DNA of 64,000 nt from positions 13,826,001 through 13,890,000 of the forward strand of contig NC_090359.1 in assembly GCF_035084215.1 (NCBI RefSeq), given 5' to 3'. Source of the DNA: Heptranchias perlo. Lineage: Eukaryota. Both the position numbers and the translations under genes were made by a program. Under the pieces are notes generated by a model. That model saw only the letters and a list, made by a program, of their open reading frames with translations. It was not told where the DNA came from and ran no database searches. Below are positions 3,590 through 54,028 of this stretch, in pieces. The number at the start of each line of letters is the position of its first letter. Positions within the stretch are counted from its first letter, which is position 1.

Positions 3590-6250
3590 ATGGACTCCTC
3601 ATTAACATATAAATAGAGGCATAGAGCACAAAAGCAAGAAAGTTAAGTTGAACCTTTATGAAACACTGGTTCGGCCACAACTGGAGTATTGGGCTCGATA
3701 TTAGGAGGGCGGCGGGTTCTCAGCGGGGGGTCGACTGAGCGCGTGGGTAACGCACCCGGTGAAATCAGTGTGCTCTGCACGGAATCGCAGGCTAATTGGA
3801 GCCACTTACCTGTGCTCACAGGTTTCCCACTGCAAAGCTGCGCGTCGGGCGGACTGCGCATGCGCAGCAAGGTCTGTCAGCTGGAGGAGCTCTATTTAAA
3901 GGGGCAATCCTCCACTGACTGATGCTGCAGAAAATAGAAAAAATTACAGAATGGAGCAGCCCAGGGGGAAGGCAGCTCCCAGTTTAATGATGCTTCACAC
4001 CAGGTATCAATGGATGGGGTGGGGAGGAGGGGGAGGACAGAGATCTTCCCCACGGCGGGCGGGAGGAAGCAGCCTGCTTCTGCCACCAGGAAGGCCTGGC
4101 TCGAGGTGGCAGAGGAGGTCACCAGCACCACCAACATATCGCCCACCTGCATACAGTGCAGGAGGCGCTCCAATGACCTCAGTAGGCCGGCCGAAGTGAG
4201 TACACTTACTCATTCCCCTCCCCTCTGTCTGCCACATCACCGCCCCCACCCCACATCTCCTTCTGCACAGCCAACACTACTCTGTCACATCACCCCTCAC
4301 ACCCACTCAAACCTCATCCTCATCTTACCTGCACTTACTCACCTCCCAGTACTCATCCCGCCACTACCACTCAACCCAATCCTCATATAATATCATGGCT
4401 CTATCTCATACTCACCCTCTCGTGCATCTCTTTCACGGTCAGCTTCACTCAACCTGCCACTACCTGTGCTGCAGCCACAGGGCATGCATCACATATGTGC
4501 AGTAGGAAGCGTAAGGCAAACGTGTCGTGAGCATGAAGGGGAAGCACAAGGGTGTTTGAGGGTTTGTCATGGTGTTTACCGATATTTAATTTCTGATCAA
4601 CTCACATAACATATTATATTATATTGTCACCATTACTGCCACGTCTTTGCGAATCTTGTCTGGTTTGTGCAATAATGCCCTTTCCTGAGGATCACTAAGA
4701 CCCGCAACTGATGCCACCCATTGTGTCACTGCAGATTGGGTGTAGGTGTATTTGCAGGGCTCTTTTGTGCAGATGACTGAGAGATGTCGGCGATGTCCCC
4801 GGTGGCACCCTGGAAAGATGCGGAGGAGAAGTTGTTGAGGGCAGTGGTGACTTTGACAGCGACAGGTAAGAAGATGGTGCTCGGGCCAGCCGGGAGCAGC
4901 TCGGCATGAAGGAGGCTGCAGATGTCGAGTGACTCTGAGCCTCCGTGTGCACTGCTGCTCAGAGAGGTCCAGGAAGCTGAGCCTCGGTCTGTGGACCCCG
5001 TGGCGAGGGTAGTGCTCTCTGCGACGCATCTCTCTCTGCGGTTGCCCTCCCTCCTGCTGTGCAAGTGGATGTGTCACAGCACTGTGTTGTGGAGCTCCAC
5101 GTGTCAGAGGTGGATGGCGTGGCTGGTGATGCTGTTCGCCCTCCGAGGAGGTCATGACTGCAGCTACGGCGGCCCCACAGCTGGAAGATGTACATTTGAG
5201 GGGGTCCGCAAGGTCGGTAAATGTGTCTGGACACCGGGGTAAGTGAGCAAGTTGGTGAATTTTATTGTTAGGAGGGTGGTGGAGGCCAAACTTTGTCCAA
5301 AGTGACAGAGTGGCCTCCTACAATGAGTGAGGGTCTCCCCCCTCACCTGTCAAATGGACCTTTGCAGCTGCCACAGGCTGATGGCTGCAACACGTCCATT
5401 TGAACTGGGAGTGTTTCCCCCAGTACGGGAAACAGTCTCAGTTAATTTCAAAATCCCATCCCTCCTAAAATATCAGGTCAATCAGGTCTGTAAATGACCT
5501 GAAGTACCTGTTTAAGTACTTTAAATGGCACCCCGCCGGCTTTAATTGCCGGCGGGAGTCCCACATGCGGGGGCTGCGTGGGCATGTCAGCGCGTCACTG
5601 GGGAACCCGGAAGTGGGTTGGAGCCGGGCTCCAGACCCGCCCCAGGAATCCCCGATTTCCGCAGCACCCCCCCCCCCCCGCCACAAATGCACCCGATCAC
5701 GGGTGCGAAAATCGAGCCCATTTTGTCCACTGAACTTTAGGAAGGCTGTAAAGGCCTTAGAGAGGGTGCAGAGAAGATTTACTTGAATGGTTCCAGGGAT
5801 GAGGGGCTTTAGTTACATCAATAGACTGGAAAAGCTGGGTTTGCTCTCCTTGGAACAAAGAAGGTGGAGAGGAGATTTGATAGAAGTGTTCAAAATCATG
5901 AAGGGTTTCGACAAAGTAAATAAAGAGAAACAATTCCCAATGGCGGAAGGGTCCAGAAGAGAGGACACAGATTTAAGGTGATTGGCAAAAGAACCAAAGG
6001 CGACATGAGGAAAAACTTTCTTAAGCAGCTATGACCTGGAATGCGCTGCCTGGAAGGGTGTTGGAAGCCCTTTCAATCGTGGCTTTCAAAAAAGGAATTC
6101 GATAAATACTTGAAGGGAAAAATTTGCAGGGCTGCGGGGAAAGAGCAGGAGAATGGGACGAACTGGATTGCTCTTACAAAGAGTCAGCACGGGCTCGATG
6201 GGCCAAATAGCCTCCTTCTGTGCTGTAACCAATGTATGATTCTGTGATTC
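3590..6250 (+). mobile_element. CR1 LINE 3' fragment, split by the Harbinger element at 3691-5719
   Basis: '...CGGCCACAACTGGAGTATT' on the left continues on the right as 'FRKAVKALERVQRRFT', then 'RLEKLGLLSLEQRR.RGDLIEVFKIMKGFD', then a CR1-type 3' tail. Confidence 0.8.
3691..5719. mobile_element. PIF/Harbinger-type DNA transposon, defective (Myb/SANT-like gene on +, HARBI1-like transposase remnant on -)
   Basis: TIRs GGGCTCGATATT / AAAATCGAGCCC are flanked by the 3-bp duplication ATT (3688-3690, 5720-5722). The Myb-like peptide 'KAWLEVAEEVTS...CIQCRRR.NDL' is at about 3951-4200. The HARBI1-like 'LPVAVKVTTALN.FSS.SFQGATGDIADISQ' is at about 4726-4900 on the minus strand. Confidence 0.85.
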
Positions 6251-6254
6251 AATG

Positions 6255-6675
6255 AGAAACAGCTGGGCATCGTCAGTTCTACATGGGGAATCTGACACTG
6301 TGTTTTCAGTTGATGTCACCGATGGGCAGCATGAAGATGAGAAACAGGAGGGGGCCAATGATAGATCCTTGGGGGACTCCAGAGGTAACGGTTCAAGAAC
6401 GGGAAGAGAAGCCATTGCAGGCGATTCCCTGGCTATGACTGGATAGATAGGTATGGAACCAGACGATGGCAGTCCCACCCAGCTGGACAACGGAAGAGAG
6501 GCATTGGAGGAGGATGGTGTGGCCAACTGTGTCATAGGCTGTAGACAGGTCGAGCAGGATGAGGAGGGATAGTTCACCACGGTCACAGTCACAGAGGATG
6601 TCATTTGTGACTTTGCTGAGGGCTGTTTCAGTGCTGTGGCAGGAGTGGAAACCTGATTGGAGGGATTCAAACATG
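6255..6675 (-). mobile_element. L2/CR1-group LINE RT fragment
   Basis: 'LQSGFHSCHSTETALSKVTNDIL...LILLDLSTAYDTVGHTILL' corresponds to RT subdomains 2-3. Confidence 0.8.
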
Positions 6676-8180
6676 GAACATAGTAACAGGAGTAGGCCAT
6701 TCAGCCCCTCAAGCCTTTCAATTCGATCATAGCTGATCTGTATCTTAACTCCATCAACCAGCCTTAGTTCCCTAACCTTTAATACCTTTGCCGAACAAAA
6801 ATCTATCAATCTCAACATCTTTTTGGTGGAGAGTGTTCCAGATTTCCACCGCCCTTGATGTGAAGAAGTCATTTCTGACATCAGCCCTGTACGGCCTACC
6901 TCTAATTTTAAGGTTATGCCCCCTTGTTCTGGACTCCCCGTCTGCCCCGCCCCCCACCAGAGGAAATACTTTCTCTCTATCTACCCTATCAACTCCTTTG
7001 ATCATCGTGAACACCTCAATTAGATCACCCCTTAATCTTCTGTACTCAAGGGAATACAGGCCTAATCTATATAACCTGTCCTCAATATTAACCCTTTTAG
7101 ACCCGGTATCATTCTGAATCTGTGCTGCACCCTCTCCAAGGTCAATACATCCTTCCTGAGGTGCGCTGCCCAGAGCTGAATGCAGTCCTCCAGATGGGGT
7201 CTAACCATGGCACTCGACAGCTATAACATAACTTCCAACCCTTTGCATTCCAGCCCTCTTGAGATAAAGGCAAACATTTAAATTATTTTTAATACCTGTC
7301 CACTAAATTTTATTGATTTTCGCACTTGGATCCCTATATCTCTCTGCCCATCCACAGATCCTAGCTTCTCACCATTTAGATAATACTCTGATCTATCTTT
7401 CTTAGGGTCAAAGTTGATGAGCCTGTACTTTCCCACGTTGAATTCCATCTGCCAATGTTTTTCCCACTCACTTAATCTATCAATGTCCTTTTGCAACTTT
7501 CTGTTCCCATCTGCACTATTTAGTGCGACCTAACTTAGTGCCGTCAGCAAACTTAGATATACGGCTCTGTATTCCTTCATCCAAGTCATTTATAAATACA
7601 ATGAAAAGCTGAGGCCCCAGTTCAGATCCCTGTGTGACATCACTAGTCACATCCTGACAATTTGAGCACATACCCATTATCTCTACTCTGTTTCCTACCT
7701 CCTGACCAATTCCCGATCCAAGCCAATGAGTTGCCACCAATCCCACGCGCTCTCACTTTAGTTAACTTTCTCTTATGTGGAACCTTGTCGAATGCCTTCT
7801 GGAAGTCCATTTAAATATCAATAGATACTCCTTTATCGACCACTTTTGTTACCTCTTCAAAAAACTCAACTCAGTTCATTAAACATGACTTACCCTTTAC
7901 AAATCCATGCTGGCTTTCTCCGATCAGCTCATATTTGTTCAAATGCTCAGTCACTCTGTCCCTAACAACAGATTCTAGTAACTTCCCCACTACTGACGTT
8001 GGACTAATAGGTCTGTAACTTCCTAGTTTATTTCCCCTACCCTTAAACAATGGAGTTATATTGGCAGTTTTCCAATCCAAGGGAACAATTCCTGAATCAA
8101 GAGAGTTTTGGAAGATCTTGAAGCATCAACAATTTCCTCACCTACACTGGGATGGAAACCATCGGGTCCTGGGGTTGTGG
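6676..8180 (-). mobile_element. Decayed CR1 LINE, RT to 3' end
   Basis: Motifs 'DWKTANITPLFK..YRPIS.TSVVGKLLES', 'QHGFVKGKSC', 'FINDLDEG..ISKFAD', 'WQMEFNV.K' and 'RTRGHNLKI' occur in order, broken by frameshifts. Confidence 0.9.
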
Positions 8181-8206
8181 GAGAGATGGGCACAGATAAC
8201 AGAAAA

Positions 8207-8722
8207 GATGGAGAGAGAGTCTGTGTGTATAATGGAATTGGTGGAGAGAGAGTCTGTGTGTATAATGGAATTGGTGGAGAGAGAGAGTCTGTGTGTATAA
8301 TGGAATTGGTGGAGAGAGAGAGTCTGTGTGTATAATGGAATTGGTGGAGAGTCTGTGTGTATAATGGAATTGGTGGAGAGAGAGTCTGTGTGTATAATGG
8401 AATTGGTGGAGAGAGAGTCTGTGTGTATAATGGAATTGGTGGAGAGAGAGTCTGTGTGTATAATGGAATTGGTGGAGAGAGAGTCTGTGTGTATAATGGA
8501 ATTGGTGGAGAGAGAGTCTGTGTGTATAATGGAATTGGTGGAGAGAGAGTCTGTGTGTATAATGGAATTGGTGGAGAGAGAGTCTGTGTGTATAATGGAA
8601 TTGGTGGAGAGAGAGTCTGTGTGTATAATGGAATTGGTGGAGAGAGAGAGTCTGTGTGTACAATGGAATTGGTGGAGAGAGTCTGTGTGTATAATGGAAT
8701 TGGTGGAGAGAGTCTGTGTGTG
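8207..8722. repeat. Minisatellite, about 33-bp unit (GTCTGTGTGTATAATGGAATTGGTGGAGAGAGA), roughly 15 copies
   Basis: The tandem array is directly visible. Units differ mainly in the number of GA dinucleotides. Confidence 0.97.
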
Positions 8723-8836
8723 AGAGAGAAAAGAGGAGGCAGAATCTGAGAGAAGGGGAGAGAGTGTATGAGTGAAAGAAGGGACAGAGAGCTTGTGTGT
8801 CAGAGCGAAGGGGACAACAAGTCAGGGTGTATGAAA

Positions 8837-11204: not shown

Positions 11205-13180
11205 GAAAATTGAGAGTCGTGGTTAACAGATGTTTCTTGCACTGGAAGGGTTCAAACCGTGGTGATCCCCGGGGTCAGTGTTGGCACCATTGCTTTTCTC
11301 AATATCTGTGGATAGAAATGATCTGGACCTGGGTGTAGGGGGCACAATGTCAAAATTTGCAGCTGCCACAAAGATAAGGAGGGAGATTAACCATGAAGAT
11401 GATTGTCAACAAATTCAGGAGGAGGCAGACAGGTGAGAAGATTGGGCAGGTAGATGTGAGATAGAATTTAATGGGAAGAGATGTGAGGTGAGGAGAATAA
11501 GGAGAGGAAATAGACACTATACTGTAAAACTGTAAAAGGAGTAGAGGAGCAGAGAGATTTAGTGATTCAGATACACAAATCTTTAAAAGTGGGAGGACAA
11601 GTTGATAAAGCTGTTTTACAAAAAAAAACCATGGGATCAGAGGATTTATAAATAGGGGCATAGAGTATAAAAGGAAAGAGTTAATGCTACACCTGGACAA
11701 ATCATTGGTTAGGTCACAGTCAGAATACTGTGTCCAGTTTTTGGTGCATTACTTTAGTAAGAATGTCGCGGCCATGGAGAGGGGCAGAAGAGATTCACTA
11801 AGATGATCCCAAGGATGAGAGTCTTCACATAACTTTTCATGAGAGCAGAGAAGTTTAAATAAGATCAGAGAGTGGGGATCAAAATTATGAGGGGATTTTG
11901 ATAAAGTAAATGAGGGATATCTATTTCCACCAGTTTGTGAGTCGGTAACTGGAGGGCATCAAATTAAGACCAAAAGAATGAAGTGAGAGGTTGGTTTTCT
12001 TTTTGATGCAGAGGGTTGTTCGGACAATGGAATGTCCGACCAGAAACACCGAGGGAAGCAGAATTTAAAAAGGAAGTGAATAAATATCTGAAAAAGAAAA
12101 CCTTGAAAGGCCTTCGATAAGGTATCGCATGTGGACTCATGACCAAGGTCAGAGCTTGTGGAGTCAGGGGACAGGCAGCAGAATGGATAGCAAGCTGGCT
12201 ACAAAACAGAAAACAGAGAGTAGGGATGAAAGGTAGTTACTCACACTGGTAAAAGGTGTGAAGTGGTGTTCCACAAGGATCGGTGCTGGGAACACTGTTG
12301 TTCACCATTTGCATAAATGATTTGGACTCAGGAATCGGGAGTACAATTTCAAAATTTGCTGACGACACCCAATTGGGAGGTACAGTTAATACTGAAGAGG
12401 ACTGCGACAAAATACAGGAAACCATTAATAAATTTGCAAAATGGACGTGTAATTGGCAAATGAATTTCAATGTAGATAAGTGTGAGGTGGTACATTTTGG
12501 TCGGAAGAATAAGGAGGCCGCATACTGCTTGGATAATAAGAGTCTAAATGGGGTAGAGGAGCAAAGGAATTTCGGGGTACAGGGACACAAATAATTAAAA
12601 GTAGCAAAGCAGGTTAATAAGGCATTAAAAAAGCAAACAAGGCACTTGGGTTCATATAAAAATGATACAGAGGCACCGGAGAAGGTGCAAAAAAGATTTA
12701 CTAGGATGATACCAGAACCGAGAGGTTAAACCTATCAGGAAAAAGTGAACAGACTGGGGCTCTTTTCTCTACAAAGGAGAAGGCTGGGGGAGGGGGGGGA
12801 CTTGATAGAGGTTTTTAAGATTATGAAAGGGTTTGATCGGGTAGAGGTGGAGAAGAAGTTTCCACTTGTGGGGGAGACCAGAACTTGGGGCCATGAAAAT
12901 AAAATAGTCACTAATAAATCCAGTAAGGAATTCAAAAGGAAATTATTTACCCAGAGAGTGGTTAGAATGTGGAACTTGCTAACACATGGAGTAATTGAGG
13001 CAAATAGCATAGATGCTTTTAAGGGGAAGCTGGATAAGTACATGAGGGAGAAAGGAACAGAAGGATATACAGATAGGGATAGATGAAGAGAGGTGTGAGG
13101 AGGCTCGTGTGAAGCATAAACACCAGCACAGACCAGTTGAGCCGAATGGCCTGTTTCTGTGCTGTAAATTCTATGTAATT
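11205..13180 (+). mobile_element. Two successive decayed CR1 LINE 3' fragments (about 11205-12110 and 12115-13180)
   Basis: Motifs 'INDLDSGIGSTISKFADDTQLGG', 'WQMNFNVDKCEVVHFG', 'RLGLFSL.RRRL..DLIEVFKIMKG' and 'FTQRVVRMWN' are present. Confidence 0.85.
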
Positions 13181-13261
13181 CCAAAGAGTCCATAAATACG
13201 GAGAATAAAAGTGGGCCCAGCACTGACCCCTGGGGTAACCACTTCCAACCCTTCTCCAATC

Positions 13262-13360
13262 ACTTCCACACCGCCTGAGGAAGGGGAAAGCCCCCGAAAT
13301 CTTGTGGAATTAAAAATAAAATCGTTGGACTATAACTTGGTGTTGTAAAATTGTTTACAA
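13262..13360 (+). mobile_element. Short Penelope-like/retrozyme-like insertion carrying a minimal hammerhead-ribozyme-like core
   Basis: A 99-bp insert lies between 10-bp direct repeats TTCTCCAATC (13252-13261, 13361-13370). It contains CTGAGGA-A-GGGG-AAAG-CCCC-C-GAAA closed by TTCCACA/TGTGGAA, then AATAAA. Confidence 0.6.
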
Positions 13361-13756
13361 TTCTCCAATCTCAGCAACTCCCATTAACCCGGACCCTCTG
13401 TTTCCGGTCCCCAGACAACTTTCTCCCCGCACTTTTCCATTTCCTTTTAAACGGCCCACCTGAACAGACTGGACATTACCCCGGGGATCCCCCAGTTACC
13501 TTCACACCGTTGCTCGCCATGTCCCTGATTTCACTTGACATCCTTCACAGTCTCATTGAATTGTCTTGGTGCCTCCCGGCCGTGTGAACATCCAAAGAGA
13601 TTTCCAGTCGGCCTCAAGTATTTTCCAACAGATTGATTCAAATCCGGTGCGGTTTTCCTCAAAACTCCTGGAAGTTCAGGCACGAATTCTCCTGTGGAAG
13701 AAAGTCACATCATGTTACGGGACGGAAGAATTAACGACCCTTCTGAAGTACTCGGT

Positions 13757-14205
13757 GTCGGCCTTGGCTCATTTGTCGCACTCTCTCAACTCTAGAATCA
13801 TAAAGGTTGTGGGTTAAAGCTCCCCTCCAGAGACCTGAGCACAAAATCTAGGCTCACACTCCAGTGCAGTACTGAGGGAGTGCTACACTGTCGGAGGTGC
13901 CGTTTTTCAGATGAAATATTAAACCGAGGCCCCGTTTGCCCTCTCAGGTGGCTGTAAAAGATCCCATGACACTATTTGGAAGAAATGCAGGGGAATTCTC
14001 CCCAGTGTCCTGGCCAATATTTATCCCTCAACCAACATCACTAAAACAGATTATCCGGTCATTATCACATTGTTGTTTGTGGGATCTTGTTGTGCAAGAA
14101 ATGGTAGCCCACTTTACAACAGTGACGTTATTTCCAAAGCCCCCGATTGGCTGCGAAGATTTGGGACACGAGGATGTGAAAGGCGCTGGAGAAATGCAAG
14201 ATCCT
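13757..14205 (+). mobile_element. tRNA-derived Deu-domain SINE (SacSINE1-like)
   Basis: tRNA-like head (TGGCTCA...GGGTTAAAGC) followed by the central 'CAGTACTGAGGGAGTGCT...TTAAACCGAGGCCCC...AAAGATCCCATG.CACTATTT...GTCCTGGCCAATATTTATCCCTC' segment. Family assigned by recall, not by search. Confidence 0.75.
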
Positions 14206-14514
14206 CCCTCCCCCTATCCGGGGCCGCCCTTCCCTCTAATCCCATTTCCCATCTCTCAAATTCGAGGACGCTGCAGGGCCCTTTAAGAGGCCTTGGGCCG
14301 ATCTCCGGAGTCAGGGTCCTGAGTCAGGGTTCATCGACTGGGCTCTTTAGCGCTGAGTGGAGGATGGAGACGGTCTGTAACCTCTGACCCTGAATCCCAG
14401 GTGAGAATCCGCCAATCACGGGACCCATGATGCCACAGAAAGGATTGTGGCGTCATCCACCGCGTGACGGCCATGTTTGCGTGACGGTCACACTGCGCAT
14501 GTGTGCCGTTAATT

Positions 14515-14985
14515 TACATAGAATTACATGGAATGTACAGCACAGAAACAGGCCATTCGGCCCAACTGGTCTATGACGGCGGTTGTGCTCCACACGAGCC
14601 TCTTCATCGAACCCGATCAGCATAACCTGCTGTTCCTTTCTCCCTCATGTGTTTCTTTAGCTGCCCTTTAAATGCATCTATGTTATTTGCCTCAACTACT
14701 CCTTATGGCAACACGTTCCACATTCTGACAATTCTTTGGGGAAAGAGGTTTCTCCCGAATTCCCAATTACATTTATTAGTGACGATCTTATATTGATGAC
14801 CCCTTGTTTTGGTCTCCCCCACAAGCAGAAACATTTTCTCTACGTCTCCCCTATCAAACCCTTTCATTATCTGAAAAGACCTCGATCAGGTCACCCCTCA
14901 GCCTTCTCCTTTCTGGAGACAAGAGCCCCGGCCTGTTCAATCTTTCCTGATAACTCGATCCTCTCAGTTCTGGTACCATCCTTGT
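14515..14985 (-). mobile_element. CR1 LINE 3' end fragment
   Basis: Reverse-complement homology to the CR1 3' end at 12730-13180 (e.g. ACAGCACAGAAACAGGCCATTCGGC). Confidence 0.8.
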
Positions 14986-14990
14986 GAATC

Positions 14991-18900: not shown

Positions 18901-21367
18901 CTAGTTGAATTGGGTTTGCTTGTGTTTCCTGTACAGGAACAAGGCGATCAAAGAAGCAGAGATCAGAGAGACAGCGGTCACAGTCAGGGCCAGGATCAGG
19001 ACCACCTCAGTCTCCACACCTAAAAAGCAACAAGAAACCAATGGTTAGTGAAGGAAATACTGAGGAGAAAATGGAAACTAGCAGTCAACCAACTCACCAC
19101 CCGGAGACCTCTCCTGCATCCTTTGCTCAACCTCATTAAGGGACTCAGTTGCCAGCTCTGTCACATCAGGATCCAGAATGACCAGGGGTCCAAGTGAGGC
19201 TTCACCCTCCCACTTCAATTCAGCATCACTCTCTGCAATATCAAACATTCCAGTTAGAGAGGGTAAAGGGTGACCTCCAACATAGAGGGGATCAATGTCC
19301 TACCAGGTCCAGATGCAAGATCCCTCCTTCCTCTGGAATCAAGTCGGAATTCCCTCGTGGCACTACAGCTGCCCAGATGACAACAGGCACACACATCATT
19401 GGTAGATTCTTCTAATGGGGTCCAGCTAAACCAGAGAATCAGTTTATCAACCAGGTTGTCCATCACCCTTTAATACAACACATCCCTGAGCGAGAGAGGG
19501 AACTTACATATTCTGGAAAGTACAAGCTTTGTTCATTGAATCTCTCTGATCCACTGCAGCAACTTTCAGGTGACAGGTGATGAAAATCTGAGGGACACAT
19601 TCAATACAAGTTGTTATTTAGTGACCTCCTCCCAACATGGGGAACCCAATGTTTGGCTTCCTCTTACCAAGGAACGGTCATCTCCAAAGAAGCGGAACGC
19701 ATCCAGGTCAAACTGGAGTTTGTCCAGCTCACGTTCACCTCTTGGCAACACAAAGGTTGAAAAGGAGTCCTCAGCTTTGCTGTCCAGGAGGCAACTGAAG
19801 AAAGATTAAAAAAGGGACAAAGTGAATAAAGTGAACCTATTGAGACATAACCAGCTGGAGAAAGCAGAGAGCTCCTTACCCATGGTAGTCAATGATGTTG
19901 TATCTTGGGGTGGAATCCTTGTCTGGGCTCAATGTAGCTGCACAGCTGTCAATGTAGAGCTTCAAGGGCATGTGGTTGGTCATTGAAACAGAGGCCTCAA
20001 TGTGAATGAGGTCACCCAGGTAGTAGACAGTCGAGGTGCGCTCTGTAAGCCAGTCATCTGAAGTACAAGAGGACAAGGGTTGGAGACAGTGGATGAAACT
20101 CCGAGTGGGAGACCACAGAAAAGCACTCCCCATCCACCCATCACATACCGTTCATAAGACGCAGTGAGAATGACAGAAGCCCTTCTCCAGACTTGGTCGA
20201 GCTGAATGGGATCCAGGTGGGCTTGATAGGGTCACTGCTCACATTGCCCTTCCTGGAAGGACAGGAGAGTAATTTCAGGACAACTTCAGAGAACTGCACC
20301 TGCTATAGACCTTATTTGCCACAGAGTAAAGTTTCTTACCTAAAATAATGGCACTCAATGGGAATGATGGCTCCATTCGTTCTCACAATGACAGATCCAT
20401 GAGCATTTGGGGTGTGGTTCAGGTGGGTGGTGTAGACCAGGAAATCTCCAGCCATCTGAAAGACATCAGGTTAAGGAATGAAGAGCTGGTCTCATTGGAC
20501 AAAAGCTATTTCTGGTCATTTTCCTGCCCTGTTAAGCAGCAGTTTGAGGGGTTTCAGCTGTTCCTCAATGACACATGATTGAAGCAGCTCCACCATTGGT
20601 TGAAGTTGCCTCGAGCAGCCTCTGTTCCTCTGCTCAGTCCACCTTCTATTACAGGGGACTTCAGGCCTGCAGTCAGAAACCCTGAAATGATTGGCACTGT
20701 CGGAATTGATGAGCATTCTTTCCCATGTAGAATAGAGCTTTCACCTTAAGGGGCTTCAAGTTAACCCTGATATGGAGCACAAAACAACATCACTTAAATC
20801 TCATCTGTGTCCGTGGAATCAAGGGGATTGGCAGGAGTAATAACCAAAAGTGGAGTTCCCCTTTAATACATTGTATCCCAATTATTATTCCACTTGTTTC
20901 ATTTTTCAAGAGAAGTCTCAACAGGAACTTCCACATTGAACATTCATTGACCACAAGTTGAGGCAACAGGCCTGAATATCCACGAGAAGGCACGGAAAAG
21001 ATAAATCAATTGAGGCACAAAAGAACAGACTGGTTTGGAGGAATGTCGGTAAAGGTTCAAGGTCAATAGAATTGAATCTCAGAGTTAGAGAGTAGTAATG
21101 ACCCATTTAAGAAAGATGCAGTCCCTCAGTGACAAGTTAAAGTTCTTTTTAAATATAAAGCTAAGATTAACAGGTCAATATAAAGTAGTTGTTTCACACA
21201 GGGTGATATTTAACAGTGGGCAAGAATTTATACACTGATTTCATTCAGGGATCTCCTCAGTGGCTGGAGTTTCAGCCGACGTGAATGAATTCAGAGTGGG
21301 CAGTAAACGACACAGTGAAATTGGAGCAAGAATTGAGGAATCACATTACCTGCAATCTGCTGCCACA
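18901..21367 (-). pseudogene. zp3: Zona pellucida sperm-binding protein 3-like gene, 5'-truncated. Exons: 21367-21350 (exon 1 remnant), 20455-20340, 20252-20149, 20057-19880, 19794-19668, 19587-19508, 19425-19304, 19232-19098, 19019-18901
   Basis: All introns are GT-AG with consistent phases and an open frame: CGSRLQ | MAGDFLVYTTHLNHTP..IVRTNGAIIPIECHYFR | [23 protein letters not shown] | DDWLTERTS..YLGDLIHIEASV..IDSCAAT..IIDYHG | CLLDSK..KLQFDLDAFRF | IFITCHLKV..NKACTF | WTPLEE..CACCHLGSC..RGRR (furin site) | ..LGPLVI | hydrophobic TM, RKHK, stop. The start codon and signal peptide are absent. Confidence 0.93.
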
Positions 21368-21534
21368 TTTTTTTTTTTTCTTTTTTTTTTGTTTTAGCAC
21401 TCTCCTCACAGGCCTCTCACTGGGAAGTTTTCTCTTTTTTTTTTGTTTTTGTGTATTAGGCCCCCCTTTTATAAGAAGGGGGGGGTGTGGGGTGTGCTTA
21501 AATACTAAAAACCAAATAAACCAAAACCAAGTGT

Positions 21535-24500
21535 TCAAATTAAAATTTTATTCTCCTCGTCCAGGATGCACTCCAGCCCCTGCGGTGCCCACCGGCCGCG
21601 GAAAGCCTCGAGCGTACCGGCAGACACCGCGTGCTCCATCTCCAGGGCCACCCGGGCGCGGAGCATTCCGCGGAATAGAGGCAGACAGGCCGAGCGACCG
21701 CCCCCACGGACCACGATCATCCTAGACCTGTGGATGGCCACCTTGGACAGGCCCAGGAGCAGGCCCGCGAGAACGTCCACCGACCTGCCCGCCCCCCTCC
21801 TCACCGGGCGGCCAAAGATCAGGAGCGTGGGACTGAAATGCAGCCAGAACTTGAGGAGCAGCCCCTTCAAATAGTGGAACAGGGGCTGCAGTCTCGCACA
21901 CCCAGTGTACAAATGAAAAACGGACTCCTCCAGGCCGCAGAAAATGCAAGCGGCCTGGGTGTCCGTAAAATGGCGTAAACGCCTGTTGCACGGGACTGCT
22001 CCGTGCAACACCCTCCACCCCAGATCCCCAAAGTAACACGGGAGGACCCCTGTATAGAGAGCCTCCCACTGGGGACCCCCGTCTCCGCCGGACGGCAGGA
22101 TGGTACGCCAGGGCGTGTCCGGGCGAGAGACGAGGGCGAGGAAGTGGATGGTGTGCAGGAGCAGCCCGTACAGGAAATCCCTCCGCGCGGTGTGAAACGG
22201 CACGGAGGGAATTTCCGAGAGACGGCTCAAGTTGTGAGGCGCGGCCCTCCGAGGGAGGTTCCGGGGTTTGGCGCCGAGGAGGAATTCCGTCCGAACGGGG
22301 GTCAGGTCGGACGGGATGGCTCCGCACGCCTGAGCCGCCTCCACACCCCGAGTGGAGTCAGGGCCGAGCGCCGATTTCAACGCCTGGATGGCGGCGGCCG
22401 CGTCCCCGGCACGCCACGAGGACATGCGAGCGGCGAGCGCCCACGGCTCGAGCCAACCCGACCTCCCGCCATCCAGGACGTCCCTGACTCTGGTTACCCG
22501 ACCGGCCACAGCCCTCCGCTCCGTCAGCCACGAGCGGCTGAAGCCGACATCGCGGAGGAACGGATTCCCGAGCAGCGGCTCCTGCAGGACGGCCGCTACT
22601 CCCGACGGGCGAGAGCTCCGGCTGGAGGCGACCATGGTCCAGACCCTGAGCAGATCCTGGTACAAGACAGGCAGCTCCTGCAAAGACGTGCGGCCGCCCA
22701 GCAGCGAGACGAACAGGAGCTGCGTGTCGTAGTTCAGGCCGTGCACCTGGCGGAAAAAATACGTCGCCAGCGCACGCCATCTAAGAGGGCGCTCCGCGTA
22801 CAGGTATCGCTGCAGCATCCGAAGGCGGAAAGTTGCCACCTGGGTGCGGACGCACACCAGCCCCTGACCGCCCTCCCTAAGCGGGAGACTCAGGACCGCG
22901 GCAGCGACCCAGTGCATCCCTTTGGCCCAGAAGTCGACGAACTTCCTCTGAATCTTGGCGACAAAATCAGGGGGGGGGGTCAAAGTGACCAACCGGTACC
23001 ACAACATGGCGGCCACCAGCTGGTTTATGACCAGCACTCGACCCCTGTAGGATAACACTCGGAGCAGTCCTGTCCAGCGCGCCAGGCGAGCGGTGACTTT
23101 GGCCTCCAGCTCTACCCAGTTCGCCGGCCAGGCTTCCTCGGCAGGGCCGAGGTAGACTCCCAGGTACCGGAGGTGCGTGGTACTCCAGGCGAAAGCCCTG
23201 AGCTCCTCCGGCATGGAGTCCACCCGCCACTGACCCACCAGGAGTCCGGAACATTTCTCCCAGTTGATCCTTGCGGAAGACGCGGCAGAGTAGACCTCTT
23301 GGCACTCGCGCATCCTCCGCAAGTCAAGGGGATCCGTGACCACGAGGAGCACGTCGTCGGCGTAAGCCCAAAGGACGACCTCCACGTCCGGCTCGCGCAG
23401 ATCCAGTCCCGACAACCTCTTGCGCAAGAGGCGCAGGAAAGGCTCCACGCAGACGGTGTATAATTGGCCGAACATGGGGCACCCCTGACGCACTCCTCTC
23501 CCGAAGCGAAGGGGCGCCGTCAAGGATCCGTTAACCTTAATCAGACACTCCGCGGCGGCGTACAGAAGTCGGATCCGGGCGACGAAATGCGACCCGAACC
23601 CGAAAGCGCGCAGAGTCCCGAATAGATACTCGTGATCCACCCTGTCGAACGCCTTCTCCTGATCTAAGGAAAGGAAGGCGACCGACAGACCAGCCCTCTG
23701 GGAATGGTGGATCAGGTCCCGGACCAGGTGGATGTTATCCTGGATCTTCCGGCCCGGGACCGTGTAGGACTGGTCGGGGTGGATCATGTGGGCCAGCACG
23801 GTGCCCAGGCGAGCAGACATCGCCCTGGCGAAGACCTTATAATCCGTGCTGAGGAGGGAGACCGGGCGCCAGTTTTTAAGGTTGCGGAGATCCCCCTTCT
23901 TAGGCAGCAGGACCATGACCGCCCTGCGCCACGAAAGGGGCATCTCCCCGGTTGCCAGACATTCCCCCAGGACCCGCGTGTAGTCGCCCCGCAGGACGTC
24001 CCAGAAGGCCCTGAGGAACTCCACGGTCAGCCCATCCAGCCCCGGGGATTTGCCCCTGGAGAGCTGGTGGAGGGCGCCGGTCAGCTCCGCCAAACTCAGC
24101 GGAGCGTCCATACTGTCGGCGTCCTCCGGGCCGACCTTCGGCAGGTCCTCCCACAAAACGCTGCGCGCCTCCTCGCTGGACGGATCCGGAGAGAACAGAG
24201 CCTCGTAGTAAGATCGAGCCCTGGCCCTGACTCCCTCCGGGTCCGAGACGAGGGACCCGTCGTCGGCCAGCAGCGTAAGGAGCTGCTTACGAGCCCCCCG
24301 CCGCTTTTCCAGCGAGTAGAAGAAGGGAGAGCCGCGGTCCAGGTCCCGCAGGAGCTGGAGCCGCGACCTCACGTACGCTCCTCGGGACCCGACCAGTTGC
24401 AGGTCCCTCAGAGCGTCCTTCTTCTCTAATTACACCTGCCGCAGGGCCGGATCCTCGGCGGCCTGACCGAGACGGGACTCCAGGCCAAGCACCTCCTGCT

Positions 24501-40947: not shown

Positions 40948-42833
40948 CTGGGGTTCGATAACCATTAGTTCTAGACTTGGTGAATGCTTTGGTTGTGGTT
41001 ATTTCCCAGTTTTCTCATCTGTTATACATGGAAATAAAAGTTATTCATTGAACTGGTTTCTCTTTGTTGTATAATTAAGTAGCTGATCTGATTATCCGGA
41101 TCACCAAGATCTCCACTGCACCACACCCAGCTGAGTAACTTATGATCCAAGTTAGAACTTTTTCCAGGCCAAAAAATATAAAAAGCCCCTCCTGGTCCAG
41201 TTTCCTCACTTGACTCTGTGCCAATCCAGGATGGTTATGATTACATCTCCAAATTGTTACTGGGATGTCTGAAATACATAATTTCTGCAACTATAACCTC
41301 AGTAACAATTCCTGCAGAAAAGGGATTTCATAACATCTGCAAGCAAAGCATCATCAATATGTTGTGCTTTAAAACAATAAAGTGGGAGGGGTGCTGTATT
41401 AGTGGCTGGAGAATGATGAGTATTGGTTAGGACAAGGGAGGGGATCCCTGCAATTTAGCTGCCCTTGCATTAGGCTGATGCCACAAATCACTCACTGGGG
41501 TGCTAGAGTTGTAGCCTGTGTAGAGTACACAATTAACAACCTGAGACTCTTCCTTCGGGCAGACTGTTCTGTTTAACGTCCCCTCATTCGGGGCAATATT
41601 TGCCCATTCTTTGTGATTGAGTAAACCAGCTATCTGTAGAAAACATCAAACTGCAGTCTGTCCTGTGTGGTGTTTGCTGTTGGTTAACCTGTACTGGTAG
41701 AGGAATCATTTGCTTTAATTTCATTTCGATCACCCAACAACTTAAACTGCCTTCCTTTTGATTATTGCATCACTAACTGTTATAAGGAGCCACAAGTTAA
41801 TTGTAATCCAATAGTTTCTGTACATTATCTTCCATATTTCATGTATTCTTTGCAACCACCTCAACTTGCACAAAAAGGCTGCCCTTAACCCACAAATATT
41901 GTGATTTTTTTCCCCCTGAAGATATCAGAAATGAAACCATCAAGTTTGTGAGCCCACTACATAAATATTCTCTTGGGCTGAGGTTGCAGACAAAGGGAGC
42001 TGTTATACATGGTTACACTACCGACAAATTAAATATTGGCTCGACTGTCAGGGGATGGAGGATGTCTGCATGAGCAAGACTGGATAACAGGGTAGGCCTA
42101 TGGGATTAAGACTACTGCTTGTGTGAAGGATAAACACCAACATGAACTTGTTGGGCCAAACAGCCTGTTGCGATGTAAGTTTTATGCAATTCACTCTTCT
42201 CTGTTCTTGAGGCTTTGTGGTCCTTCTGTTCAATGCCTGGTAGTTGCACCAGAGATACAACAGGATAGGAACAAAATACTGAAGATACTGGAAAACTCAA
42301 ACACAAACAAAAAATGTTGGAGATACTCACCAGATCAGGCAACATTGGTCTAGAAAACACAAGACAGTTGACATATCAGATATAAAACCTTTCCTCACAA
42401 CAGACTCGAGATTTGCAGGAGATGAATAAACAGTGCAAACTAAACACTGGACTTTACAGGTTCTAAATTTCATGGGGATAAAACTCCACATCGCACTTTA
42501 CAGTGATGGAGCAACAGAGTTCTGTTTGAAGCTCCCAACTGATCCACTTTCCATTTCCCCAACTCGTTGTCGGTTGGTTTGCGGACTCACTGCGGACTGT
42601 CTGGTGAAGGTCAGTCTCCTTCAATCTATTGTGGTGATCAACATTGTGAATCTTGGTATAATGGACTCTTTCAGGACACACCGAGATGCCCATCAATTGT
42701 CCAAGAGTTGCGATAACTTAGAAACGATTGTGCTCGACACCATCTACGGGATGGGATTTCCATTTGTAAACTGATCGATCTCTTTGAGAAATGTGTGAAG
42801 CTCTGATTCTGGAAACAGAGATGTGATCAGATT
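40948..42833. repeat. Intergenic spacer of the ferritin tandem repeat unit (homologous to 59898-61747)
   Basis: Colinear high similarity from the 3'UTR up to AACAGAGATGT(G/T)ATCAGATT in both copies. Confidence 0.92.
42814..42833. repeat. Target-site duplication AACAGAGATGTGATCAGATT (left copy)
   Basis: Identical 20-mer at 49655-49674 and 56840-56859; a single one-mismatch copy lies at the empty site 61728-61747. Confidence 0.93.
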
Positions 42834-42944
42834 TTTTTTTTTCTTTTAGGGTGTGTTTTTTTTTAATTAGGCCCCCCTTTTATAAGAAGGGGGGGGGTGG
42901 GGTGTGCTTAAATACTAAAAACCAAATAAACCAAAACCAAGTGT

Positions 42945-45900
42945 TCAAATTAAAATTTTATTCTCCTCGTCCAGGATACACTCCAGCCCCTGCGGTGCCC
43001 ACCGGCCGCGGAAAGCCTCGAGCGTACCGGCAGACACCGCGTGCTCCATCTCCAGGGCCACCCGGGCGCGGAGCATTCCGCGGAAGAGAGGCAGACAGGC
43101 CGAGCGACCGCCCCCACGGACCACGATCATCCTAGACCTGTGGATGGCCACCTTGGACAGGCCCAGGAGCAGGCCCACGAGAACGTCCACCGACCTGCCC
43201 GCCCCCCCCCTCACCGGGCGGCCAAAGATCAGGAGCGTGGGACTGAAGTGCAGCCAGAACTTGAGGAGCAGCCCCTTCAAATAATGGAACAGGGGCTGCA
43301 GTCTCGCACACCCGGTGTACAGATGGAACACGGACTCCTCCAGGCCGCAGAAATCACAAGCGGCCTGGGTGTCCGTGAAATGGCGTAACCGCCGGTTGCA
43401 CGCGACTGCTCCGTGCGCCACCCTCCACCCCAGATCCCCAAAGTAACACGGGAGGACCCCTGTATAGAGAGCCTCCCAATGGGGACCCCCGTCTCCGCCG
43501 GACGGCAGGATGGCACGCCAGGGCGTGTCCGGCAGAGAGACGAGGGCGAGGAAGTGGATGGTGTGCAGGAGCAGCCCGTACAGGAAATCCCTCCGCGCGG
43601 TGTGAAACGGCACGGAGGGAATTTCCGAGAGACGGCTCAAGTTGTGAGGCGCGGCCCCCCGAGGGAGGTTCCGGGGTTTGGCGCCGAGGAGGAACTCCGT
43701 CCGAACGGGGGTCAGGTCGGACGGGATGGCTCCGCACGCCTGAGCCGCCTCCACATCCCGAGTGGAGTCAGGGCCGAGCGCCGATTTCAACGCCCGGATG
43801 GCGGCGGCCGCGTCCCCGGCACGCCACGAGGACATCCGTGCGGCGAGCGCCCACGGCTCGAGCCAACCCGACCTCCCGCCATCCAGGACGTCCCTGACTC
43901 TGGTCACCCGACCGGCCACGGCCCTCCGCACCGACAGCCGCGAGTGGCCGAAGCCGATATCGCGGAGGAACGGATTCCCGAGCAGCGGCTCCTGCAGGAC
44001 GGCCGCTACCCCTGATGGGTGAGAGCTCCGACCGGAGGCGACCATGTTCCAGACCCTGAGCAGATCCTGGTAAAAGACAGGCAGCTCCTGCAAAGACATG
44101 CGGCCGCCCACCAGCGAGATGAACAGGAGCTGCGTGTCGTAGTTCAGGCCGTGCAGCTGGCGGAAAAAATACGTCGCCAGCGCACGCCATCTAAGAGGAT
44201 GCTCAACGTACAGGTATCGCCGCAGCGTCCGAAGGCGGAAAGTTGCCACCTGGGTGCGGACGCACACCAGCCCCTGACCGCCCTCCCTAAGCGGGAGACT
44301 CAGGACCGCGGCAGCGACCCAGTGTATCCCTTTGGCCCAGAAGAAGTCGACAAACTTCTTCTGAATCTTGGCGACGAACTCAGGGGGGGGGGTCAAAGTG
44401 ACCAACCGGTACCACAACATGGCGGCCACCAGCTGGTTTATGACCAGCACACGACCCCTGTAGGATAACACTCGGAGCAGTCCTGTCCAGCGCGCCAGGC
44501 GAGCGGCGACTTTGACTCCAGCTCTTCCCAGTTCGCCGGCCAGGCTTCCTCGGCAGGGCCGAGGTAGACTCCCAGGTACCGGAGGTGCGTGGTACTCCAG
44601 GCGAAAGGCCTGAGCTCCTCCGGCAGGGAGTCCACCCGCCACTGACCCACCAGGAGTCCGGAACATTTCTCCCAGTTGATCCTTGCGGAGGACGCGGCAG
44701 CGTAGACCTCTTGGCACTCGCGCATCCTCCGCAAGTCAAGGGGATCCGTGACCACGAGGAGCACGTCGTCGGCGTAAGCCGAAAGGACGACCTCCACGCC
44801 CGGCTCGAGCAGAGCCAGTCCCGACAACCTCTTGCGCAAGAGGCGCAGGAAAGGCTCTACGCAGATGGTATATAATTGGCCGGACATGGGGCACCCCTGA
44901 CGCACTCCTCTCCCGAAGCGAAGGGGCGCCGTCAAGGATCCGTTAACCTTAATCAGACACTCCGCGGCAGCGTACAGAAGTCGGATCCGGGCGACGAAAT
45001 GCGACCCGAACCCGAAAGCGCGCAGAGTCCCGAATAGATACTCGTGATCCACCCTGTCGAACGCCTTCTCCTGATCTAAGGAAAGGAAGGCGACCGACAG
45101 ACCAGCCCTCTGGGAATGGTGGATCAGGTCCCGGACCAGGTGGATGTTATCGTGGATCTTCCGGCCCGGGAGCGTGTAGGACTGGTCGGGGTGGATCATG
45201 TGGGCCAGCACGGTGCCCAGGCGAGCAGACATCGCCTTGGCAAAGACCTTATAATCCGTGCTGAGGAGGGAGACCGGGCGCCAGTTTTTAAGGTTGCGGA
45301 GATCCCCCTTCTTAGGCAGCAGGACCACGACCGCCCTGCGCCACGAAAGGGGCATCTCCCCGGTCGCCAGACATTCCCCCAGGACCCGCGCGTAGTCGCT
45401 CCCCAGGACGTCCCAGAAGGCCCTGAGGAACTCCACGGTCAGCCCGTCCAGCCCCGGGGACTTGCCCCTGGAGAGCTGGTGGAGGGCGCCCGTCAGCTCC
45501 GCCAAACTGAGGGGAGCGTCCAGACTGTCGGCGTCCTCCGGGCCAATCTTCGGCAGGTCCTCCCACAAAACTCTGCGCGCCTCCTCGCCGGACGGATCCG
45601 GAGAGAACAGAGCCTCGTAGTAAGATCGAGCCCGGGCCCTGACTCCCTCCGGGTCCGAGACGAGGGACCCGTCGTCGGCCAGCAGCGTAAGGAGCTGCTT
45701 ACGAGCCCCCCGCCGCTTTTCCAGCGAGTAGAAGAAGGGAGAGCCGCGGTCCAGGTCCCGAAGGAGCTGGAGCCGCGACCTCACGTACGCTCCTCGGGAC
45801 CCGACCAGTTGCAGGTCCCTCAGAGCGTCCTTCCTCCCCTCGTACACCTGCCGCAGGGCCGGATCCTCGGCGGCCTGACCGAGACGGGACTCCAGGCCAA

Positions 45901-46849
45901 GCACCTCCTGCTCCAACCGCCTGACCTCGGACTCCCGCCTCTTAGTCGACCCCCTCGCGTACTCTTGACAGAAGAGGCGGACGTGAGCCTTGCCCACGTC
46001 CCACCATAGCCTCAAGGAGGAGAAGCCTCCCCGCTTCCCTCTCCAGTCGCTCCAGAACAGACGGAACGAGTCCCGGAACCGCGCGTCCTCCAGCAGCCGG
46101 TTGTTAAAGTGCCAGTACGCGGACCCCGACCGGGCGCGGAGCAGAGCGAGCTCCATCCACACCAGGTGGTGGTCCGAGCACGACACCGGCCGGATGGAGG
46201 CCGACGGGACGCAGGAGGCGTACGCCCGCGAAACGTACAGGCGGTCGATTCTGGTGCTCCCTCCTGCAGCCCTCACAAAGGTGAACTGGCCGGAGTCGGG
46301 ATGGAGATTCCGCCAGACGTCCACCAAGTCGAAGGACCCGACCAGGTCCCTCAACTTCCCCGTCGCCGACCGGCGATCCGCGGGACCGGAGCGGTCCCTC
46401 GCCTCGAGGGTACGGTTAAAATCCCCCCCGAGGATAATGCACTCGCCGGCGTCGACGGAGTTCAGGTAAGTGGACACTTCCTCAAAGAAGCTCACTTGCT
46501 CGCCCTCGGACCAGGGGGCGTACACGTTCACCAGGTGAAGCGGCACGGCCCCGTGGCGAAGGGCTACGTGGAGCAAGCGGCCCGGCACCGGCTCCTTGAC
46601 CCCCAAGATCTCCGGCTGAAAAGTCGGGGCCAACAAGATGGCCACCCCGCTCGAAACGCTGGCGAGGTGACTCAAGTAGACCCCCCCTCCCCATTCCAGG
46701 ATCCACGTGGCCTCGTCTCCCGGAACGGTGTGGGTTTCCTGCAGAAAGCACACCGCATACTTCCCGTCCCGAAGGACCGAGAACTTGTCAAATCTAAGGC
46801 GGGCGTCTCTGCCGCCGTTGATGTTGAGGCTGGCTATGGTTATCTCCAT
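42945..46849 (-). pseudogene. Tx1 copy 3 ORF2, one frameshift after the RT core
   Basis: ORF 44438-46957 covers EN+RT up to 'NWEELE'; the continuation 'KVAARLARW...' is in another frame (42945-44717). Confidence 0.9.
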
Positions 46850-46878
46850 GGCAAGAGCACAGCGCAACCTACTTAAAC

Positions 46879-48921: not shown

Positions 48922-49654
48922 GACCTAAAGAGCCACACCCACCCCAAGTCTCGGGCCTACTGATGAAATTAGGCCTTTTTAAAAGAAGCCCTGAGGAAAC
49001 CTCTCTCCCCGAATCCCAGAGCTTGGTTGGGAGAGGGGCCCCTTTGCTGGTTTTATTTCCCCCCAGAATATCCGGGAGAGCAAGAGAAGGTGGGAGGGAT
49101 TAATGGTGGAATGGGAAGGAGGGAGTCTGCAGGGGTAGGCTGCTGCAGAAGTGGGTGGAAGTGGGGCGGGGTTGCACCTTAAAAGGTGGATCATCTTCTG
49201 TCTGTCTTCCAGTGGGCAGGGGGAGGAGATGTCTTCCCCGAGACAGCTGGAGCTGCCTAGGCTCAGTCCTCCAAAGATTGAAAAAGTAATTTCACCCAGG
49301 CAGCTCCAGCTGTCCTGGGCCAGACACTTGGGGGAACCCCCTGTCCTCTAAGGTCTTCTTCCTCCCCCTACCTTCAGCCGACGCACCTCACTGCACCGAC
49401 CTCCTCTTCCTCCCTCTGTTCGGTGTCGGAAACCACCAGCAGCAGCAGCAGCAGCACAACCCCTCCCGGCTGCTGTTTGGTCGTATTCTTCTTCACCCTC
49501 CCTCCTTGTTGATGGTGGTTTCTCCTTCTCCTTCTCCTTGACTCAGAGGGACCCGGGCAAGGGCCTGCTCTCTCTGCTCTCTCTGCTCTCCACTCAATGG
49601 CAGTTCAGCCACAATCAGCTCCAATGCCGAGCTGGTGTGTCTCAAAGACAACCC

Positions 49655-49854
49655 AACAGAGATGTGATCAGATTCCGTCTGAGGAAAGTCAAAGAAACCA
49701 ACAGCAATGGCATCACAGAATAATTCTCCAATCCCACCTGTATTCCAAAGCTCTGATTGGTTCTGGGAATCACACCCCACCTTCTGTCCTTTGTTAATTG
49801 GTGCCTGGATTCATGGACGATTCCTGAGTGGTTGTCAGGGATTGTCAATCATCA
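49655..49854 (+). promoter_or_regulatory. Orphan duplicate of the ferritin B promoter, between Tx1 copies 3 and 4
   Basis: Matches 56840-57039 and ends at the N gap. Confidence 0.85.
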
Positions 49855-49995
49855 NNNNNNNNNNNNNNNNNNNNNNNNNNNNNNNNNNNNNNNNNNNNNN
49901 NNNNNNNNNNNNNNNNNNNNNNNNNNNNNNNNNNNNNNNNNNNNNNNNNNNNNNNNNNNNNNNNNNNNNNNNNNNNNNNNNNNNNNNNNNNNNNN
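49855..49995. other. Assembly gap (141 N)
   Basis: Run of N. Confidence 1.
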
Positions 49996-50093
49996 TTTTT
50001 TGTTCTTTTTTCTAATTAGGCCCCCCTTTTATAAGAAGGGGGGGTGTGGGGTGTGCTTAACAACTAAAAACCAAACAAACCAAAACCAAGAGT

Positions 50094-53999: not shown

Positions 54000-54028
54000 G
54001 GCAAGAGCACAGCGCAACCTACTTAAAC

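Follow-up and report, generated by a model that had tools for sequence, protein, structure and literature searches.

Organization of the ZP3/Tx1/ferritin locus

The window analyzed here is a 64,000-nucleotide stretch (C38:13826001-13890000 of a 3.25-Gb assembly) in which the body of a ZP3 gene is joined through Tx1 elements to a block of ferritin genes. The features on the two sides of the junction are listed below in window coordinates.

20455-20340, 20252-20149, 20057-19880, 19794-19668, 19587-19508, 19425-19304, 19232-19101 and 19019-18901, minus strand: ZP3 exons 2-9, with AG/GT ends and one open frame
20456..21349, minus strand: ZP3 intron 1, with GT..AG ends, 94-99% identical to paralogues
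21350-21367, minus strand: remnant of ZP3 exon 1, its final 18 nt (CGSRLQ plus the GT donor)
21368-21395 (about), minus strand: distal poly(A) tail touching ZP3; its first two A may belong to the target
21396..21434, minus strand: 39-nt tag, matching a B-type Tx1 5' end (C38:15529839, 2 mismatches)
21435..28168, minus strand: Tx1 copy 1 and its own tail; full length, mosaic, with a frameshift in ORF1 and a stop at codon 332 of ORF2
28169-28380, plus strand: 212-nt ferritin promoter piece, at a stock 5' junction
28381..35157, minus strand: Tx1 copy 2 and its tail, inserted ~42 nt upstream of the ferritin ATG position
35158..40947, plus strand: ferritin gene 1 with promoter and introns, ATG at 35411, the first of a four-gene block (Pfam Ferritin, E 5.4e-10)

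The ZP3 reading frame was uninterrupted through exons 2-9 to a stop at 18901 (minus strand), and exon 4 matched the Pfam ZP-C domain (E 6.5e-12). Since coding exon 1 measures 402 nt in intact paralogues and 18 nt remain here, the gene has lost 384 coding nt together with its promoter. An earlier note on this DNA had placed the poly(A) tail of copy 1 directly against the exon 1 remnant. The junction does lie there, at 21367/21368, but the tail is not copy 1's own: the order on the ZP3 side is exon 1 remnant, second poly(A), 39-nt tag and only then the A-run of copy 1. The tag reads as a 3' transduction, because a 36-nt pattern taken from it matched, in the whole assembly, the window, one duplicate locus and the B-type Tx1 5' end (2 mismatches) only. 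The rest of exon 1 and the ZP3 promoter were missing on the far side of copy 1, as the earlier note had described; the longest exact match to them within the window was 13 nt of low complexity, and a search of 114 kb around the locus for a ZP3 head or a target-site duplication (TSD) beyond copy 1 revealed none, save one diverged head 58 kb away. Its statement that copy 1 has no TSD was also upheld, with no target-site 7-9-mer found within ~300 nt of the 5' end of the element.

The window carries four 6.7-6.8 kb copies of one Tx1 element, all on the minus strand. Copies 1 and 4 matched Pfam Exo_endo_phos and RVT_1 (an AP-type endonuclease and a reverse transcriptase, RT). With copy 4 as the query, the RT region was 66% identical over its length to Xenopus Tx1 ORF2 (149-kDa protein), the best-scoring hit with an element name; the highest-identity ORF2 match (77%) was from a ray, which together with the repeat content suggests that the DNA is from a cartilaginous fish. 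The endonuclease and RT, the closest named RT, and the combination of poly(A), 5' truncation and TSDs point to membership of the Tx1 clade, and the two ORFs with endonuclease and RT resemble those of Xenopus Tx1, Keno, Kibi, Koshi and Tx1-Mar. Both ORFs of copy 4 are intact, at 681 and 1319 codons from stop to stop, and copy 3 shows a 20-nt TSD-like repeat.

Copy 1 is a mosaic: the first 2.4 kb of its alignment differed by 0.9% from copy 2, and columns 5200-6650 by only 0.4% from a B-type copy. Mosaicism was widespread, affecting most of the 19 aligned Tx1 copies, so that the mosaic map of copy 1 does not pin down a crossover. Copies 1 and 2 have an identical 5' junction. Copy 2 also bears the ORF2 stop of copy 1, within a run of 482 nt over which the two are identical. 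The duplicate of copy 2 at the second locus lacks this tract, which marks gene conversion between neighboring copies.

On its 5' side copy 1 adjoins the 212-nt promoter piece, which is followed by the tail of copy 2; the ferritin gene begins past copy 2. The earlier note had put the far end of copy 1 in a ferritin promoter, and this holds for the promoter piece, but a second element intervenes before the gene. The element/promoter junction at the 5' end of copy 1 occurred 33 times in the assembly, solely on C38, C43, C725 and C1048, and stands before different ferritin paralogues with chimeric promoters. Because it is present 33 times and in arrays only, this 5' junction was inherited and not created by the ZP3 insertion. 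The main ferritin cluster lies at C43:4.28-4.78 Mb, with 33 first exons in 200 kb of it. The block in the window aligns to this cluster through exons and introns alike, at 96.6% identity for 5.4 kb and at 97.3% for 9.5 kb, and is thus a copy, with its introns, of a ferritin cluster that lies on a different chromosome. The ZP3 array contains several further intron-bearing ferritin genes with Tx1 flanks, and ferritin genes on C43 contain pieces of the ZP3 promoter and exon 1. At one C43 site (L058:2394-2706; C43:4630687-4630999) a Tx1 stub with 173 nt of ZP3 TATA/exon 1 sequence sits in ferritin intron 1.

The junction is present at two loci

The poly(A)/ZP3 exon junction was found twice in the assembly, at C38:13847369 and C38:11846466. 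The duplicate locus (C38:11.85 Mb) was 99.7% identical to the window over 20 kb of the left flank and over ferritin gene 1, and 98.9% identical over ferritin genes 2-4. It has an insertion 110 nt inside copy 1 and a third tandem copy, lacks copies 3 and 4, and its block terminates in a ZP3 gene of opposite orientation. Both loci share the arrangement of ZP3, then copy 1, the promoter piece, copy 2 and ferritin gene 1, and the Tx1 copies pair between them: copy 1 differs from its counterpart by 10 substitutions within the first 6700 alignment columns, and copy 2 by 14 in total. An insertion after ferritin gene 4 shares its 3' junction between the loci; beyond it lies a ZP3 head at one locus and a ferritin promoter at the other. 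The two loci would reflect a later duplication or allelic divergence. The missing copies 3 and 4 occupy 42830-56860 of the window, within a region otherwise 99% identical to the duplicate. At the duplicate junction (C38:11846466-11846800) five tail segments are stacked: two ferritin 5' UTR tags, a ZP3-promoter-like tag, a 110-nt Tx1 end and the 39-nt tag.

The earlier note had named a misjoin within the repeated element as the finding that would overturn its reading. Between the flanks lie 14-21 kb of repeats that are 97-99% identical, and there is an N run at 49855-49995 (masking or a gap), both of which would favor such an error. However, two distinct sequences with different Tx1 arrays give the same ZP3-to-ferritin order with pairwise matching copies, and the searches for a reciprocal product described below turned up no orphan head waiting for the junction; a misjoin is therefore unlikely, and we rank it last among the explanations considered here. 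Four read runs of relatives (~92-95% identity) gave no contig across the junction and were uninformative either way. One relative's contig (place 21456) joins a Tx1 3' end to ZP3 TATA-site sequence, a hint, from a single loose contig end, that the association extends across species.

Tx1 truncation is common among ZP3 paralogues

ZP3 is present in approximately 160 paralogues, as judged by a head pattern (159 sites) and a junction-spanning pattern (160 sites) searched assembly-wide; among the matches listed, most sites lie at C38:9-18 Mb. Exons 2-9 were open in 66 of 100 sampled loci, and all nine exons in at least 57 of the 100. The earlier note had taken the open exons 2-9 of the truncated gene as a sign of a recent event. 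The exons are indeed open, but with so many sampled paralogues in the same state their openness says little about age, and the loss of this copy is redundant. The truncation is better dated by the duplicate locus, which differs at 6 of 2468 nt in the gene, and by the nearest intact paralogue, which differs at 16 of 978 exon nt (1.6%). The truncated gene is likely a silent, redundant pseudogene, and with at least 57 of 100 sampled loci keeping nine open exons its loss carries little weight.

We also examined the upstream side of 99 sampled ZP3 gene loci (omitting L211, a C7 fragment; L175 could not be oriented automatically). The promoter was kept in 43 and replaced by a Tx1 end in 54. The Tx1-truncated loci derive mostly from a few founders, whose Tx1 ends lie at the TATA box or ~75 nt before the ATG, and the junction in the window was the only exon-1 3' junction among the 99. 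Approximately 15 copies (L123, L134, L138, L145, L166 and others) begin in the proximal promoter and stop in exon 9 at the 3' end of an old antisense Tx1; they are possibly intron-retaining antisense transductions of nearly the whole gene. Unrecognized in the earlier note, the ZP3 hit concerns one of ~160 copies, the event is duplicated, such truncation is common in the array, and the ferritin block comes from another chromosome.

Origin of the junction

The explanation that we place first, with about even confidence, is a Tx1 insertion into ZP3 exon 1 followed by homologous exchange with a Tx1 in a ferritin promoter. Target-primed insertion would have set the tail 384 nt into exon 1 of one ZP3 copy; exchange with an element resident in a ferritin promoter would then have cost the gene its ZP3 head and brought the remaining body up against the ferritin block; and a later duplication (or allelic divergence) would have produced the two loci. 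More generally, Tx1 copies would act as homology hubs that reshuffle the ZP3 and ferritin arrays. The 3' side of copy 1 bears the marks of target-primed insertion. TSDs of at least 9 nt were called in 34 of 44 dispersed copies with the 5' end in view (an automated count with no chance control, in which at least one call, L257, is a tandem-repeat artefact); as TSDs are usual for the family and missing here, an exchange of flanks is needed. Such exchange is visible nearby, since the insertion after ferritin gene 4 has different 5' flanks at the two loci. The proposal of the earlier note that Tx1 copies joined the two loci is thus supported by the stock 5' junction (33 occurrences, in arrays only) and by the flank swaps and gene conversion at the locus. 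Ferritin likely arrived on C38 (~3% divergence) before the ZP3 junction formed (the gene being 1.6% from its nearest intact paralogue), as far as these divergences can tell, so that the final join probably took place within C38.

Non-allelic homologous recombination between integrated LINE copies leaves a mosaic element between unrelated flanks, with the TSD lost. The mechanism proposed here is no different; what is peculiar is that its substrates are concentrated in the promoters of two arrays.

Post-insertion exchange predicts products that we looked for in several ways. Neither junction locus holds a canonical ZP3 insertion, since no TSD and no remainder of the target follow the 5' end of the element. 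Among the 99 sampled of ~160 ZP3 sites, none carried a pre-exchange allele with head, TSD, element and body. The reciprocal junction for which the earlier note had called was not recovered: two negated-donor patterns, which cover short TSDs only, returned point-mutated donors and one match on C23; none of the 99 sampled ZP3 loci was an orphan head; and among 104 head positions listed, none lay within 22 kb of any of the 41 A-type 5' ends on C38. The ~60 ZP3 sites outside the sample could include a head with a long TSD, as the family can make duplications of 204 bp.

The absence of both the intermediate and the reciprocal product is explained more simply by a bridge formed at insertion. Here cDNA primed in ZP3 exon 1 would pair with a resident Tx1/ferritin-promoter junction, where second-strand synthesis would end, giving a deletion or translocation in one step. 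The junction has the expected form, with poly(A) at one breakpoint and a distant locus at the other, and seamless 5' joins without TSDs recur at array insertions (copy 2, and the insertion 110 nt inside the duplicate's copy 1). Head-to-head Tx1 pairs with two outward tails, running from the ferritin-promoter site to the ZP3 TATA site, were seen at about two dozen sampled loci, and bridging has been shown experimentally for human L1, where homology promotes it (accessible text of PMC13526784). The same source reports that mismatches suppress bridging via MSH2, however, and the copies here differ by 1-4%. In addition, gene conversion between integrated neighbors is active here, so that the post-insertion route requires no new assumption, and the ferritin flank on the dispersed full-length copy is no longer than ~12 nt, so that long promoter cargo in the RNA is unsupported (n = 1). 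We regard a bridge at insertion as a serious but less likely alternative to insertion followed by exchange. The head-to-head pair at C38:11912784-11914966, like those at the other sampled ZP3 loci, resembles a bridge of two simultaneous insertions that was amplified later.

The diverged head 58 kb away raised one further possibility, that a ZP3 gene received the 58-kb Tx1/ferritin block in its entirety, as a long antisense transduction or a Tx1-bounded segment, and that the head at C38:13905116 is its lost front. The far end of the block does carry a ZP3 promoter and ~25 coding nt, in the right orientation and joined to a Tx1 5' end, and the family does retrotranspose unspliced ZP3 pieces (an orphan tag on C7 has a 14-nt TSD). 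We rejected this head as the lost front: it is ~91% identical to the reference, ends near codon 9 and not codon 128, and has no TSD; moreover, it recurs at C38:14784028 with another 3' flank and is missing at the duplicate locus. As the right ends of the two duplicate loci differ, a composite insertion is largely refuted and we consider it very improbable.

Distribution and target preference of the Tx1 family

The 3' ends of the family were counted with a 28-mer (up to 1 mismatch). This revealed 643 ends genome-wide, or 0.2 per Mb. Loci centred on ZP3 gave 60 ends within 1.0 Mb, and the C43 cluster gave 5 within 0.2 Mb, densities that are inflated by duplication and by the choice of loci. For A-type elements, 61 of 63 5' ends, and with them almost all full-length copies, were in the ZP3/ferritin arrays or on two unplaced contigs that also carry ZP3. 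A single fixed target of the Keno type was not seen, as the 643 3' ends lie on many chromosomes with varied flanks and the arrays contain many sites.

L1 3' transduction tags are short pieces of flank between A-runs that reveal the source locus. In this family several tags are often stacked in a row, and most lead back to the 5' regions of ZP3 and ferritin genes. The dispersed copies examined were 50 of the first 52 listed 3' ends, on C1-C4, with two clustered C4 entries skipped; ZP3/ferritin tags between A-runs were present in 9 of the 50, compared with 0 of 50 in an equally long control. Eight of the tags came from the ZP3 promoter or intron 1 and one from a ferritin flank; the nine loci represent eight events, since L258 and L259 are one duplicated event. 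A looser filter or inspection by eye added five tagged loci (L087, L110, L261, L264 and L265), whereas the matches at L098 and L114 were discarded as generic repeat or chance. Because dispersed copies bear such tags and the control does not, the ZP3/ferritin arrays are likely major source loci of dispersed Tx1 daughters. At C7:63.40 Mb (L211:4950-5070) lies an 84-nt stretch of ZP3 that crosses unspliced from exon 1 into intron 1; it carries poly(A) and a 14-nt TSD but no element, and is by its structure an orphan transduction. 'Partnered transductions' have been described for L1 (10.1101/2024.08.27.596794, accessible text).

Insertion sites within the arrays were numerous and, on a rough parse, grouped toward the 5' ends of the genes. 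This parse, which pools tags with in-situ sites, gave distinct ZP3 sites at about -120, -80, -48 (TATA), +384 and +2792, and about seven distinct ferritin sites from -400 to -44. Of 22 Tx1 pieces in the C43 stretch, 19 have their end in the 1 kb that precedes a ferritin ATG; such zones make up 17% of the stretch, although about half of the pieces are one old amplified insertion. The ZP3 TATA site bears stacked tags at 7 loci, which requires repeated Tx1 arrival. Preference for ZP3 and ferritin 5' regions, which the earlier note had suggested to reach beyond ferritin alone, gains far stronger support than that note could draw on, from the distinct and repeatedly struck sites, from the A-type 5' ends (61 of 63 in arrays) and from the tags (9 of 50 against 0 of 50). 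The family therefore likely favors ZP3 and ferritin promoters, on sequence evidence in which targeting is not cleanly separated from survival and amplification.

These patterns could also arise if insertion were broad and concentration in the arrays came about through tolerance of redundant copies, duplication of founders and the breeding of sources active in the germ line. The 643 3' ends are scattered across chromosomes; CCAAT was only slightly enriched near dispersed targets (20 in 12,150 nt, compared with 37 in 30,000 nt far from them; 1.65 versus 1.23 per kb); the 54 truncated ZP3 loci derive mostly from few founders, with two start positions accounting for 46 main hits; many C43 pieces are one old insertion amplified along with its cluster; and tags show sources, not targets. 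On the other hand, many separate sites have been struck in both ZP3 and ferritin in the rough parse, the ZP3 TATA site was struck serially, as the stacked tags at 7 loci attest, and ferritin genes on another chromosome receive ZP3-derived tags. Concentration without preference is accordingly a possibility that we hold in some doubt.

Transcripts of zp3 and ferritin heavy chain are abundant in zebrafish oocytes/ovary (PMC1488847), as are ZP gene transcripts in catfish (PMC13704971), in the accessible text of both reports. By analogy with these other fishes, the Tx1 target genes may be highly transcribed in oocytes. We tentatively propose that this Tx1 lineage is steered to the Pol II promoters of oocyte-active arrays (ZP3 and ferritin) as a niche, as R2 is to rDNA, and is bred there by germ-line transcription; synchronous bridging insertions would move intron-bearing ferritin genes and ZP3 pieces between chromosomes and drive the birth and death of ~160 egg-coat genes. 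We give this idea somewhat less than an even chance.

Several other candidates were set aside. Genome-wide targeting of CCAAT boxes had little support, as the enrichment is weak, and the mostly ordinary sequence at dispersed targets likewise speaks against a strict targeting of promoters. A third target gene at L269 (C10:14.09 Mb) proved to be one tandem-amplified insertion, with three Tx1 stubs 2.1-2.2 kb apart. A promoter-cargo model was not supported by the single dispersed full-length copy, which has at most ~12 nt of ferritin flank at its 5' end (n = 1). This copy (L268, 377-580 and 7346-7550; C30:36827577-36834750), the sole dispersed full-length A-type element, is flanked by a 204-bp direct duplication identical at 203 of 204 positions, far longer than the usual 9-15 bp; long duplications do occur.

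Comparison with known systems and implications

A preference for repeated targets is common in the Tx1 clade, and the targets named in the accessible text of one account (PMC4494074) are a DNA transposon, U2 snRNA and other small-RNA genes, microsatellites and LTR elements. Unlike these, the targets here are the 5' regions of two unrelated multicopy protein-coding genes, with many nearby sites. A literature search outside Repbase and most subscription journals found no Tx1 targeting of protein-coding promoters. The present case is a candidate widening of Tx1 preference, in which promoters of multicopy protein-coding genes would join small-RNA genes and repeats as targets.

L1-mediated rearrangements (Zumalave et al., 10.1101/2024.08.27.596794; Mendez-Dorantes et al., PMC13526784) are alike in that a retroelement bridges distant loci, with one-sided poly(A), a chimeric bridge and no TSD in cis. 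For human L1, both post-insertion recombination and pairing at insertion are known from these two sources. As far as their accessible text goes, the rearrangements described there are somatic or from cell culture, with matched normals, whereas the one described here is inherited, non-mammalian and recurrent in gene arrays, with no reciprocal found. The truncated ZP3 gene is real, but it is a small example of a rearrangement type already known; it matters as a natural, inherited LINE-bridged rearrangement, of a type so far mainly known from tumors and cell lines. The Tx1/ZP3/ferritin system as a whole likely represents a new form of Tx1 target preference with genome-shaping effects. The stacked tags provide an internal genealogy that links sources to targets, so that targeting can be tested directly against survival.

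Fish ZP3 copies multiply by tandem and segmental duplication, with 39-49 ZP genes in catfish (PMC13704971, accessible text). By comparison, ~160 ZP3 exon-1 ends are present here, interleaved with Tx1 and ferritin genes, and Tx1 activity may account for the expansion and mixing of the egg-coat and ferritin arrays in this lineage.

Some smaller features of the region were also recorded. A 33-bp tandem array occupies 8149-8759 of the window and an old inverted repeat pair (78-87%) 12695-14990, and within intron 2 of ferritin gene 1 part of exon 3 is repeated (39230-39275). Elsewhere on C38, a 2.1-kb tandem unit lies beside a Tx1 array (C38:15530000-15550000; L013), and one of its units appears tRNA-like by eye.
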